Assembly: GCA_947632415.1 (NCBI GenBank)
Contig: CANRPB010000001.1
Coordinates: 19,549 to 83,548, forward strand
DNA: 64,000 nucleotides
Source: an uncultured Bacilli bacterium
GTDB taxonomy: Bacteria; Bacillota_I; Bacilli_A; RF39; UBA660
Direction of reading: 5' to 3'
A program made the position numbers and the translations under genes. This document shows positions 12,921 to 37,524 of the stretch, one piece after another. The notes under the pieces were generated by a model. It was not told where the DNA came from. It worked only from the letters and a program-made list of their open reading frames with translations, and searched no databases. Each line of letters starts with the position of its first letter. The stretch's first letter is position 1.

Positions 12921-13872
12921 CGTAATATGCTTTTGGATGGTCCCAATTTCCTGTCTGATAATGGTATGATAATTCTGTTAATGTATTGATAATAAGGTCT
13001 TTGCGACTATCTAACTCAATTTCATTAAACATGTTAAATACTCTCACTTCATAGCTATCATTCGTTTGAATTGCAACTATATATGCTTCGCAATCATAAT
13101 CTGATATATCTATACCTAAGTCAGTCATATACCAAGTAATTGCGAGCAAGTAATAACATATCTGCCGATAGTAATCAAACTCTTCAACAGAATGCTTAAA
13201 GTTATATACGTCACTGGTTGTCTTTAAGTCAATCAGTGTTATTTTTTTATTTATATGGTCGAATATACATCTATCAAGTAATGACTTACACGGTGCTATC
13301 CAATTATTTACTTTAAATTTCCAGTTAATGTGGAATTCATTATGAGATTCCACTCCAGGTATATCTGTTAGCAATTCCTTTGCTTTCTTATGGTTATATA
13401 TATTATCCTTAATAGTATTTAATATATTCAAATCGGCAAAGCTAATTGCTTTTCTATTCTCTTTGTTATGTTTTAAAGCTTCTATATAGTCAGCATACTT
13501 CTCACATAGCTCTGTCGCTTCTTTTAAGGCGATTTCAGACGTTTTCTGGTTACTATATGAACTACGGTATGCCTGAAGCTTTTTCGTGTCTTCTATGAGC
13601 TCTAATGAGCTCGCATAAGCTTCACAGAAATCCTTTTGTTGTTTTACTTTAGGTACTTCATAATCAAGTATAATATAATCATGCCAGAATTCATCTGGTT
13701 GCAGTATATACTCATGTATCATAGTACCTCGTTCAAGTTGAGGTAGTTTTAATCCTTCCTCTTTCCCGTCTATCATATCCTTATAATACCGTGGTCCTTT
13801 CTTTAAGAACCACCCGATTGCTGAGTTTGATATTCGCGTGTTATCTTCATAATACGGAATCTCTATTTTCAT
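12895..13872 (-). CDS. PD-(D/E)XK (RecB/Cas4-like) exonuclease
   Basis: Motifs ERGTMIHEY, DHINKKITLIDLKTT (D...DxK) and YYRQICYY (QxxxY). 325 aa. TGA stop. Confidence 0.7.
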   Translation of the reverse strand: MKIEIPYYEDNTRISNSAIGWFLKKGPRYYKDMIDGKEEGLKLPQLERGTMIHEYILQPDEFWHDYIILDYEVPKVKQQKDFCEAYASSLELIEDTKKLQAYRSSYSNQKTSEIALKEATELCEKYADYIEALKHNKENRKAISFADLNILNTIKDNIYNHKKAKELLTDIPGVESHNEFHINWKFKVNNWIAPCKSLLDRCIFDHINKKITLIDLKTTSDVYNFKHSVEEFDYYRQICYYLLAITWYMTDLGIDISDYDCEAYIVAIQTNDSYEVRVFNMFNEIELDSRKDLIINTLTELSYHYQTGNWDHPKAYYDGDGTEEI

Positions 13873-23641: not shown

Positions 23642-23683
23642 TATCCGGTATGGGAATCGAACCCATATTAACCATTACCGGAT
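23642..23683 (-). ncRNA. tRNA-like minihelix (acceptor stem plus T-arm only)
   Basis: - strand: ATCCGGT AATGGTTAAT ATGGG TTCGATT CCCAT ACCGGAT A. Confidence 0.45.
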
Positions 23684-31313: not shown

Positions 31314-31492
31314 TTGTTGATTTCTTTTTTAAAGTTATCGACTATTCCAGACACTTCAGATAATGATAGTTCTGGATACTTTTGCATCACTTTATTTATT
31401 GCATCTATATCAGACTTGGCTGAATTGAGCAATTTAATAAACTCTGTTCTTTCGTGCTTAGATTTAAACCAAGCAAAATACTTTACATACAT
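31310..31492 (-). CDS. Hypothetical protein
   Basis: 60-aa ORF with a 4-nt overlap to the downstream gene. Confidence 0.5.
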   Translation of the reverse strand: MYVKYFAWFKSKHERTEFIKLLNSAKSDIDAINKVMQKYPELSLSEVSGIVDNFKKEINK

Positions 31493-31770
31493 TGATACTC
31501 GTATTCTTTAATTTTGTTACTCAGTTCATTCCATTTAGTTAAATTAATATCAGTAGCATCAACTAAATGAATAATGTTACAATCTACTACGTTAGTATCA
31601 AATATTCTGTAAAGTATTTTAATTGCTTTTTTATAATGATACCTATTTTTATAGTACTGCGGTATTGCACCATAAAGACGCTCAACCAATTCTGTCCGCA
31701 TCTTCAATTCAGTAGCAGCTTTATCCCATGCTTCTGGAAGATTCTCTCTGATAAATTTTCTAACACTCAT
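31483..31770 (-). CDS. Hypothetical protein
   Basis: 95-aa ORF. Confidence 0.55.
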   Translation of the reverse strand: MSVRKFIRENLPEAWDKAATELKMRTELVERLYGAIPQYYKNRYHYKKAIKILYRIFDTNVVDCNIIHLVDATDINLTKWNELSNKIKEYEYQCM

Positions 31771-31799
31771 AATTTAATTGATTTAAATTGTTAATAATG

Positions 31800-31873
31800 T
31801 AGTGAGTAGGAGATTCGAACTCCTTATCTCTTGGTAAAATCCAAGGCTTCACTCCACGCAAAGCTTACTCACT
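31800..31873 (-). tRNA. tRNA-like cloverleaf with a 6-nt anticodon loop (AUUUUA). Isotype undetermined.
   Basis: - strand: AGTGAGT AA GCTT TGCGTGGAGTG AAGC CTTGG ATTTTA CCAAG AGATA AGGAG TTCGAAT CTCCT ACTCACT A. There is no position-26 nucleotide, and the loop is one nt short. Confidence 0.45.
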
Positions 31874-32100
31874 AATCCATCAAGTTCTAACATTTTACAG
31901 GGTCGAGAGCTTGCAACAACACCAAACCTATTTATTACTCGCGGGGATACGACGAGGCTCACCTCTGTTGCTAGACGGAGCTACCCCAGACTTTACTTAC
32001 GCTACTAAGCGGGTATAGTCAGTAACATAACTTGTATTGCCAGTTATTCGCATTATTGACCTATTCTATTTCACATTGTCGCCGTCAAATCCATTTTACC

Positions 32101-32214
32101 CCCGTAGAATGCGTTTTAAGGCTATTTTAAGGCGATTCTAGACACTTTTGAGGTTGACTGGATGATTTATATCAATTTGCATCTAAAATGTCTTAAAATG
32201 GCTTAAAACGCTTA
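32101..32214. repeat. Copy A of the three-copy element. It contains an internal inverted repeat.
   Basis: GCGTTTTAAG (32111-32120) is the reverse complement of CTTAAAACGC (32202-32211). 32120-32154 aligns to 37429-37462 with few mismatches. Confidence 0.6.
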
Positions 32215-32740
32215 ATTATGAAAAATTTAATTAGAATAGTGGAGGTAGAGATCTCCGACAATCTCGTCCGTACGACTGCTCCATAGACCTAACAGTCAAT
32301 TGTGGATATGTAGCCGACCAAAGCTACATACCCTATGGTCTTGTAAATGGTTAGTTCACTATATACTGATCTTGATGATATACGAATGATGACAGCTTTT
32401 ATCCTATACACTGTGATTCGAAGATTCACATCATTCAGTCTATGCTTGATACCACGACTAAAGCTTTTCTCTATTTCTAGAGGACAATCTTATTGTCGCG
32501 ATCTCAGACTTATGATCAGTAGTTCATTGTGGTCCCTCATAACTGATTCAAAGATACTGTATGAGACCTGTTAATTCAGGTCTGTAATGCGACTCAGGCC
32601 CTGTGCGCAATGCAACTTCCGACTCACGCATTAAAGTTATTGATTCAAAGATTCTAAACTTGGAACTTCTTTTTTTATGAAAGTCACTTCAGTGACTTGA
32701 GTAAATAAGCCACGCTAGTGGACTTTTATTTTTAATCGAA

Positions 32741-33211
32741 TTAGCGACGGTTAATACCCGGTACTAATTCATCGTATCTCCATTGCCATGAATCTGGGAA
32801 GAGTTCACGTAAATCATTCTGTGATTCATCGATACTCTTACCGATTTCAATTAAGTCTTTATCGTACTGCTTCTTCATCTCACGAGCTTCTTTATCCCAT
32901 GCAGACACAGGTTTCTTTCCACTCTTGATGTCTTCAGCAAGTGCTGATAATTCCTTCAGGTAAGTTTTGATACGTTGGTTTGTACGATTGGATCTACGAA
33001 CTTGCAATACCGCAGAGGATACTGTAAATTCACATTTCTGTACAACAGCAACTAACTCGTTCGTTAACTTCTCTTTGCGACGTTCAGCAATCTTTTCAGC
33101 TGCTTTGGTTGCAATATCTTCAGTTACTTTACTAGAGTTAGCGATAACATCTTGGATGTTTTCACCATCAATATCCTGCGTAAGGATATTCATCTTTTTG
33201 TCTTCTGCCAT
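32741..33211 (-). CDS. Hypothetical protein
   Basis: 156-aa ORF. TAA stop. Confidence 0.65.
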   Translation of the reverse strand: MAEDKKMNILTQDIDGENIQDVIANSSKVTEDIATKAAEKIAERRKEKLTNELVAVVQKCEFTVSSAVLQVRRSNRTNQRIKTYLKELSALAEDIKSGKKPVSAWDKEAREMKKQYDKDLIEIGKSIDESQNDLRELFPDSWQWRYDELVPGINRR

Positions 33212-33544
33212 TTTGATTAAGCTTTAATTGATTTAACAATAATTTATTTAACACTCTGTTAGTACCAAATTAAAAGACCTACCCTATTTATTTGTATTGC
33301 TTATTCATAGGAAACCCATTTCCTTCTTTCATAAACTGTTTATAAACAGGTTGACCGTTGTATAGTCCATTGTACTCTTGCATATAGCTTCCATTAGGGT
33401 TCTGGTTATTTGTAGGTCTTTATGTTGATTGGATTCACCACATTATTAAGTTTTAGTTAATAATATTATATAGTTTGGGTAGATACTCTGGCGGAATATC
33501 TACCTCTAACTATCATAGCAACAATAATGAGTATCACCTCAATA

Positions 33545-34615: not shown

Positions 34616-34968
34616 AATTTGATATTATTTGATTAACGGCGTGTGCAAGAGCATTTTGCACAATTTTACATTTGTTTCAGAATAAGTACTAGTAATGCTC
34701 ACTAGCGTTAGTGTAACAATAAACACCATAAAACACATTTACTTTAGTTCTTGATACTCACTAATTACGAATAGCAGGTATAGTAATCAGCTATACCTTA
34801 TCACGGCATGATTTTAACGCCTGCACTAATACTTATCTAAAAGGCTAGCACTTTTGATAAGATATGAGCCCCACATGTTTGTTACTGATTCTCACAGTGA
34901 AAGCGTGTATACTATTCTCACGAACCATATACACCATACGTAATTATGAACAAAAGCATTATTAAAGC

Positions 34969-37420: not shown

Positions 37421-37524
37421 CCCATAGAGGCTATTTTAAAGCGATTTAAGACACTTTTAGGTACTGAGTAGTATAAGTGTAAGGTTGAATATAGATAATG
37501 GCTTAGAAAGCCTTAAAATGAGTC
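37421..37524. repeat. Copy B of the three-copy element, in the divergent intergenic region
   Basis: CCCATAGAGGCTATTTTAAAGCGATTTAAGACACTTTTAGGT, then AATGGCTTAGAAAGCCTTAAAATG. Matches copy A block for block. Confidence 0.6.

Follow-up and report, generated by a model that had tools for sequence, protein, structure and literature searches.

We report here on the gap of 970 nucleotides (nt) at positions 31771-32740 of a 64,000-nt stretch of contig CANRPB010000001.1 (hereafter the window), which is flanked by the genes 31483..31770 and 32741..33211, both on the minus strand. We consider it likely that this block is a minus-strand cassette of RNA genes belonging to a Suoliviridae phage which recodes TAG: it would carry an RNA resembling RAGATH-20 and RAGATH-22, a circularly permuted (two-piece) gene for transfer-messenger RNA (tmRNA) and a tRNA-like element serving as punctuation. 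The window is the DNA of a crAss-like phage (Suoliviridae; human gut) and encodes a tRNA(CUA) of the amber-suppressor type. The block itself matches Suoliviridae genomes, the best match being cr53_1 (80% identity over 78% of the query), with weaker matches to cr60_1, cr52_1 and others. All the genes around the block and every RNA feature described in it are carried by the minus strand. An initial annotation of the window was right in considering the block non-coding, its lone open reading frame (ORF) spurious and its cloverleaf no clean decoder, but it missed the main content, which is the permuted tmRNA gene and the RAGATH-20-like RNA placed before it.

The two-piece tmRNA gene

The tmRNA gene spans 32301..31997, and the Rfam model tmRNA_permuted aligns to 32299..31997 with a score of 34.1 bits (E = 7.9e-5). 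Its parts were delimited with this alignment, with the parse of related loci and with tables of covariation. The acceptor piece (32239..32301) holds the 5' strands of the P2 helix (UUGAC, UCUAU and GUCG, from the Rfam alignment and covariation), the T arm GAGAU-UGUCGGAG-AUCUC (32248-32265), whose non-canonical loop has 8 nt, and the 3' acceptor strand UACCUCC (32241-32247); it ends on the discriminator A73 at 32240 and on C74 at 32239, CCA being only partly encoded. An intervening spacer of about 136 nt (32104..32238), predicted to be excised, separates it from the coding piece. The 5' part of the latter (32042..32103), including the leader ahead of the resume codon, begins with the 5' acceptor strand GGGGGUA (32097-32103) and contains the D-loop analogue AAAAUGGAUUUGAC and the P2 3' strands CGAC, AUAGA and GUCAA, these elements being read from the parse of relatives and from the fold. 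The tag reading frame (31997..32041) is GGC AAU ACA AGU UAU GUU ACU GAC UAU ACC CGC UUA GUA GCG UAA, that is, 14 codons for the tag GNTSYVTDYTRLVA and the stop UAA, and the tag is identical to the one which ARAGORN gives for cr52_1. A post-tag trailer of 123 nt (31874..31996), richer in G+C than its surroundings, follows.

Three features which define a permuted tmRNA are present in the window. First, the upstream UACCUCC-A pairs with the downstream GGGGGUA, 136 nt apart, in an alanine-type acceptor stem of 7 base pairs (bp) having G1-C72, G2-C71 and G3.U70. Second, the P2 helix (UUGAC/GUCAA, UCUAU/AUAGA and GUCG/CGAC) ties the acceptor piece to the coding piece. Third, a resume codon opens a tag frame which ends with a hydrophobic C-terminal degron and a stop. 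The T stem GAGAU/AUCUC is also fully paired, and the acceptor stem and T arm reappear, along with the hairpin of the spacer and the cloverleaf, in the minimum-energy fold of 31795-32345 (551 nt), whose z-score is -3.9.

The same gene is already annotated in two related genomes: RefSeq has a feature 'transfer-messenger RNA, SsrA' in cr60_1 (NC_055891.1, 12121-12567) and in cr52_1 (NC_055888.1, 81171-81551), both syntenic with the window, and ARAGORN describes both as permuted, with the tags GNTSYVMDYTRLAA and GNTSYVTDYTRLVA respectively. In these Suoliviridae of the Loutivirinae, as in the window, the gene occupies a slot downstream of RAGATH-20 and RAGATH-9 RNAs and upstream of a sigma-factor module; the P2 sequences, the stem with G3.U70, a tag which is the same or nearly so, and a tRNA-like element after the gene are found in all of them. 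The window differs from both by a unique acceptor stem (GGGGGUA/UACCUCC) and T stem, by its non-canonical 8-nt T-loop, by a spacer filled with a repeat and by a trailer of 123 nt instead of about 40 nt; its tmRNA, unlike theirs, escapes ARAGORN and stays below the Rfam cut-off. The nearest published relative, cr53_1, carries the same permuted tmRNA, scoring 50.3 bits, above the Rfam cut-off (NC_055889.1, about 93093-93328), for which RefSeq holds no tmRNA feature and which ARAGORN misses. A literature search found no paper on the tmRNAs of crAss-like phages or on their tRNA-like tail; what it returned were citations of software and one mention, unrelated, of tRNA pseudogenes.

Variation of the tmRNA among relatives

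We collected relatives by scanning IMG/VR with the first 23 nt around the resume codon, which returned more than 115 crAss-like contigs; together with RefSeq and the window, 119 stretches with the tag motif were obtained. Since this search was anchored on the tag, the first six tag codons are uninformative. The common architecture of acceptor piece, spacer and coding piece could be parsed in 108 of the 119 stretches: the acceptor piece consists of the P2 5' strands, the T arm and a 3' acceptor strand ending in UCC-A-C, and the coding piece consists of a 5' acceptor strand starting with GGG, the D-loop analogue, the P2 3' strands and the tag. Over these 108 loci the acceptor stem exists in 8 sequence versions, fully paired, with G1-C72, G2-C71 and G3.U70 always kept, while the T stem exists in 10 versions, each of them fully paired as well. 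The P2a segment covaries in five forms (GUCG/CGAC, GUUG/CAAC, AUUG/CAAU, AUCG/CGAU and UUCA/UGAA).

Outside the search pattern, variation in the tag frame reaches all 6 third codon positions, versus 2 first positions and 2 second ones. Compared with the commonest tag allele, the window has five codon differences, every one of them synonymous. In relatives the stop of the tag is always TAA or TGA; TAG never occurs there, in keeping with the recoding of TAG by the phage. At the level of sequence, the tag frame is shown to evolve like a translated one. Five loci, L133 and L137 among them, have a tag one codon shorter, GNFYVTDYTRLVA, and the Uncouvirinae phages cr114_1 and cr125_1 have the tag GNFYVTDYTRIAA.

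Several observations weigh against a tmRNA gene in working order in the window. The score of 34.1 bits does not reach the Rfam cut-off of 47, and ARAGORN detects no tmRNA in the block. Both misses are due to the T-loop, a non-canonical 8-mer: the canonical loop of 7 nt (UUCRANY) with its closing pair G53-C61 is absent, and the loop is closed by a U-A pair. The combination of acceptor stem and T arm is a singleton so far, and two exact-match scans for the tRNA-like domain of the window returned no other viral or metagenome contig. (One viral match to the T arm and acceptor strand was rejected as a chance hit inside a protein-coding region.) The 123-nt trailer stands in place of the short post-tag pseudoknot of most relatives, CGGCUAAGCUAAUGUCGUAGAAAGCUGG, and its 3' 95 nt fold no better than shuffled sequences (z = -0.1). 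Finally, a scan of the block for intrinsic terminators and sigma-70 promoters gave nothing beyond chance, and no promoter was found. As to the trailer, it has a block CGUAUCCCCG.G.GUAAUAAAUAGGUU in common with the group of L133 and L137, where this block belongs to a post-tag insert.

These observations could mean that the window holds a decaying copy of a real family, which has lost trans-translation: the aberrant T-loop, the two detection failures, an allele seen nowhere else and a divergent trailer all speak for such a copy. We hold this to be unlikely. The acceptor stem is paired at 7 out of 7 positions, the T stem at 5 out of 5, and P2 is intact, although the strands of the two stems differ from those of every relative, a state which decay would not maintain; G3.U70 is retained; the tag frame is intact, with none but synonymous differences. 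Moreover, the T-loop is canonical in 83 of the 108 loci, and 24 others have non-canonical T-loops (UAUCGUAU, UAUCGUAA, GGCAGUG and GGCAGUA) together with intact stems and tags, so that variation of this loop is apparently tolerated in this lineage of tmRNAs. We rather favour, with some reserve, a working allele, because each of the two stems stays complementary with strands which, on both sides, are unlike those of any relative. The detection failure itself is common in the family: among 98 full-length regions of relatives, ARAGORN finds the tmRNA in 57.

The spacer

Most of the spacer of the window is an imperfect hairpin of 101 nt (32111-32211), which also appears in the minimum-energy fold. 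The initial annotation had noticed it as a repeat, copy A, and this holds: partial copies lie at 37428-37458, 15619-15651 and 13516-13546, the tmRNA spacer containing copy A alone. Candidate identities of the repeat are a mobile element, a promoter and a binding site.

In relatives the spacers range from 15 to 603 nt and their sequences are unrelated to each other. Five loci, such as L098, have a spacer of 601-603 nt with an ORF of 176 amino acids on the opposite strand. This ORF gave no match in a Pfam scan; it matches the PHROG families of endonucleases, endonuclease VII and HNH endonucleases, down to 1e-25. All the alleles with an insert of this endonuclease type carry the non-canonical T-loop UAUCGUAU, which suggests that traffic of homing endonucleases, with co-conversion, shapes the T arm of the tmRNA. 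In cr114_1 (NC_055897.1), ARAGORN finds a regular tRNA-His(GTG) inside the spacer, between the acceptor and coding pieces; the excision of this tRNA alone would free both ends of the tmRNA. Because the spacers of relatives are unrelated and may hold an endonuclease-like gene or a tRNA-His, the spacer presents itself as a permissive insertion site, which processing is predicted to remove.

The tRNA-like element after the tag

The cloverleaf downstream of the trailer, which had been reported with an anticodon loop of only 6 nt, AUUUUA, is real: ARAGORN calls 'tRNA-???' at 31799-31873 on the minus strand, with an anticodon of two bases (tt). Besides ARAGORN, the element (31799..31873) is defined by covariation and by elements found at the same position in relatives. 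All four arms of a tRNA are there: the acceptor stem AGUGAGU/ACUCACU with a 3' tail A-C, the D arm GCUU/AAGC preceded by A at position 8, the anticodon stem CUUGG/CCAAG with the 6-nt loop at 31835-31840, and the T arm AGGAG-UUCGAAU-CUCCU. Over 21 pairs in 10 distinct relatives, 210 of the 210 pair cells are standard, and 8 of the 21 pairs have changed on both sides. In 500 shuffles, neither the paired fraction nor the covariation score of the real alignment was ever reached, and the pairing collapsed when the registers were slid. The end of the cloverleaf lies 29 nt from the ATG of gene 31770..31483, and no terminator-like site was found between the two.

This element is no clean decoder, as had been stated. 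A 7-nt anticodon loop, a readable anticodon of three bases and U8 are wanting, and nucleotide 26, between the D stem and the anticodon stem, is absent; the Rfam tRNA model gives no match at E <= 10. Nor is the short loop the defect of a single copy: all 42 related copies have a loop of 6 nt, always of the form RUNUUA (AUAUUA, AUUUUA, GUAUUA, GUUUUA, GUCUUA or AUGUUA). A search with variable gaps, allowing loops of 4 to 10 nt, returned no other true copy, only two unrelated G+C-rich matches.

A relaxed search found an element made of an acceptor stem and a T arm past the tag in 94 of 105 relatives; 81 of these 94 start 35-41 nt past the tag stop and 82 have the 3' tail ACA. This search also matches 18% of shuffled sequences, which counts against it, and we give evidential weight solely to the clustering of positions and to the strict matches (63/108). 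The body of the element is very different from one sister phage to another: there are minihelices of 43-48 nt, forms of 58 nt with one extra hairpin, forms of 78-79 nt with an unpaired 'anticodon' arm, and forms of 122 nt. In every one of these types the acceptor stem is paired and the T arm has the T-loop UUCGANU, and the tail is mostly ACA. In a second subfamily, the Uncouvirinae, the element is kept as a minihelix of 43 nt. Hence we find what a punctuation signal should have, a conserved acceptor/T-arm minihelix with a dispensable body at a transcript boundary. Judging from sequence conservation, the features which are conserved are those recognised by RNase P, RNase Z and the CCA-adding enzyme and not those needed for decoding. 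The cloverleaf is most likely a processing signal for RNase P and RNase Z, comparable to the t-elements of plant mitochondria, rather than a decoder.

Could the cloverleaf be a working adaptor of a non-standard kind? It might be a tRNA of the Lys/Asn type (NUU) whose shortened loop evades the anticodon nucleases of the host, or a doublet (UU) decoder which promotes -1 frameshifting, co-expressed with the phage tmRNA as a module for taking over translation. The cloverleaf is otherwise complete, with GG in the D-loop, a canonical T-loop and a variable loop of 5 nt; RUNUUA keeps a base like U33 and a base like A37, and only the wobble-like position varies (U, C, A, G); phage tRNAs whose altered anticodon loops resist tRNA-targeting defences do exist. 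However, the same slot in sister phages holds minihelices without an anticodon arm or forms with an unpaired anticodon stem, A replaces the near-universal U8, nucleotide 26 and any match to the Rfam tRNA model at E <= 10 are missing, and the wobble-like base would flip the identity between Lys and Asn among close relatives. We regard such an adaptor as highly improbable.

Hardly more credit can be given to the element being a relic of a tRNA gene without function, or an attP-like fragment of a host tRNA, carried beside the tmRNA. Phage tRNA genes frequently decay, and the identities which ARAGORN assigns to the elements of relatives are inconsistent (Leu, Ile, undetermined). A relic would not be expected to stay equally far from the tag stop in two subfamilies, nor to have standard pairs in every cell and compensatory change at 8 pairs; and both acceptor strands are present, although an attP copy needs the 3' part only. 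We therefore keep to the processing signal; its coupling with a tmRNA, and its form as a full cloverleaf with a fixed 6-nt loop, are new here.

Three further tRNA-like elements with a defective anticodon lie just upstream of minus-strand genes in the window, at 16445-16490, 21924-21994 and 23643-23683 (all -). With the tRNA-His in the spacer of cr114_1, they speak for processing of the tRNA type as a recurrent theme in these phages. The last is a minihelix of 41 nt made of an acceptor stem, the linker AAUGGUUAAU and a T arm. The same design is found upstream of the primase gene in cr53_1, with compensatory changes in both stems, and altogether in 65 viral loci with 19 combinations of stems, samples from outside the gut included. 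The element 21924-21994 is tRNA-Pro(agg) for ARAGORN, its homologue in cr53_1 is annotated as tRNA-His(atg), and it scores below the Rfam tRNA cut-off; because of these conflicting identities and of this score, it is probably not a decoder.

The region upstream of the tmRNA

A short-form RNA resembling RAGATH-20 and RAGATH-22 occupies 32500..32585; it was delimited by Rfam matches below cut-off and by its recurrence in relatives. RAGATH-20 scores 35.4 bits in the window (E = 0.0019) for a gathering cut-off of 101.4, and RAGATH-22 gives a weak overlapping match. The hairpin GACCUG-AAUUAA-CAGGUC and the conserved tail ACUACUGAUCAUAAGUCUGAGAUC are recognisable: of the two-hairpin architecture of RAGATH-20 the first hairpin survives, as does the 3' tail, while the middle hairpin is shortened. 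The hairpin loop GAAUUAAC and the tail ACUGAUCA...GAUC are those of the candidate RNAs RAGATH-20 (RF03048) and RAGATH-22 (RF03098). In cr60_1 and cr52_1 the slot is filled by a canonical RAGATH-20 (about 120 bits), from which the RNA of the window differs by its shorter middle (85-86-nt form), this form being the commoner one among the relatives sampled. In 79 of the 100 relatives whose flanking sequence is long enough, a motif of the RAGATH-20 type precedes the tmRNA by 190-530 nt, mostly in the short form of 85-86 nt. The consensus fold also contains a covarying helix, GUUCC with GGGAC, on account of which the element seems to start near 32660. A literature search on RAGATH-20 found no paper.

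Between this RNA and the tmRNA lies a pseudoknot module (32304..32340). Nested hairpins had been described there. The inner one, UAUGUAGC/GCUACAUA, is confirmed and grows to 12 bp, GGGUAUGUAGCU/GGCUACAUAUCC (32304-32333), with two-sided changes at 11 of the 12 pairs. The outer stem of 7 bp, CCATAGG/TCTATGG, is supported no better than chance and must be given up: its 3' half, UCUAU, sits in the P2 helix of the tmRNA, where it pairs with the downstream AUAGA, and at the place of its 5' half relatives have GACCAAA, which instead forms a pseudoknot with the complementary hairpin loop UUUGGUC. GACCAAA and UUUGGUC are fully complementary in several relatives, and in the window the loop can pair with the upstream GACCAUA (32334-32340). 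As the module is missing in some relatives, the tmRNA can do without it.

The block might alternatively hide small protein genes, since it contains ORFs of 75 (32347..32574, plus strand) and 46 amino acids (32289..32429, minus strand). The first of these frames, the lone ORF which the initial annotation judged spurious, is interrupted by stops in 67 out of 67 homologous stretches of relatives; the second matches relatives only over the pseudoknot hairpin, which is conserved as nucleotides, and does so with indels. Small protein genes are thus next to impossible here. Neither of the two conditions which the initial annotation named as refuting it holds: the comparison of related genomes shows that the block is conserved among relatives, and no conserved small-protein gene was found in it.

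Two more hairpins are specific to the window. AAGUCAC-UGAA-GUGACUU (32681..32698) is present, as had been reported; it is absent from aligned relatives and does not rise above chance. A small hairpin, CCAC-UAGC-GUGG followed by UUAUUU (32710..32721, read from the sequence), lies just past the stop of gene 33211..32741 and might act in weak termination or attenuation; it was not among the calls of the terminator scan, and it is not kept in relatives.

Genomic setting

The next intergenic gaps upstream of the block also contain structured RNAs: a RAGATH-9 RNA at 33272-33432 (-) with 140 bits, and a hatchet self-cleaving ribozyme at 34806-34904 (-) with 83 bits. With the block, they make up a group of clustered RNA elements within a single minus-strand module. 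In the assembly (contigs C1 and C6 are concerned here), the phage contig, of 98.7 kb, belongs to a bin of 1.39 Mb which is 93% complete; on contig C6, this bin encodes a standard tmRNA of its own, whose tag GNKIKNAFASMFKGNVVAYA is unrelated, as well as an smpB. The phage may have been mis-binned, or its host may be an unexpected one. No smpB was found on the phage contig; therefore the SmpB of the host would be needed.

Discussion

Two-piece tmRNAs are found in Alphaproteobacteria, some Betaproteobacteria and Cyanobacteria (Rfam RF01849-RF01851, merged as RF04321; PMC11915505). The phage gene resembles them by the order of its parts, acceptor piece, spacer and coding piece, by its tRNA-like domain made of two strands and by its presumed dependence on tRNA-maturation enzymes for processing. 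It differs from them in being stripped down, without a pseudoknot ahead of the resume codon, and in having a tag family of its own; its spacer is open to inserts (a hairpin repeat, a tRNA gene, a homing-endonuclease gene), and the gene is followed by a tRNA-like element. As for this last element, its closest described analogues are the t-elements of plant mitochondria and, more generally, tRNAs which punctuate polycistronic transcripts. The t-elements are linked to the 5' and 3' ends of mRNAs, where they most likely tell RNase P and RNase Z where to cut (Forner et al. 2007, PMC1920247). The cloverleaf has in common with them a non-decoding tRNA shape at the boundary of transcript parts, in which the acceptor stem and T arm alone are conserved; it differs by its location in a phage genome and by its coupling to the 3' end of a tmRNA gene, and its cleavage is a prediction.

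We propose the following mechanism. The precursor would fold into the two-strand tRNA-like domain, RNase P of the host would cut ahead of G1, and a 3' nuclease with the CCA-adding enzyme would finish the other end after A73; the spacer with repeat copy A would thereby be discarded. At the far end of the gene, a cut by RNase P at the 5' end of the cloverleaf would release the 3' end of the coding piece, and a cut by RNase Z past the discriminator of the cloverleaf would leave a short 5' leader for the next gene. The two-piece RNA would be charged by alanyl-tRNA synthetase and carried to stalled ribosomes by the SmpB and EF-Tu of the host. Stalled proteins would then receive a tag ending in LVA and be degraded. 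Such a tmRNA could be useful where the amber suppressor causes read-through of TAG stops.

The results have several consequences. Standard tools miss a sizeable share of the tmRNA genes in one of the commonest groups of human-gut phages. The non-canonical T-loops, found with intact stems and tags, bear on what SmpB and EF-Tu need at the elbow of tmRNA. The gene looks built for processing of the tRNA type, with its permissive spacer and with a closing tRNA-like element in nearly every relative. Finally, the presence of a tmRNA in a phage which recodes TAG and has an amber suppressor suggests that the phage manages the stalling which results from its own recoding.

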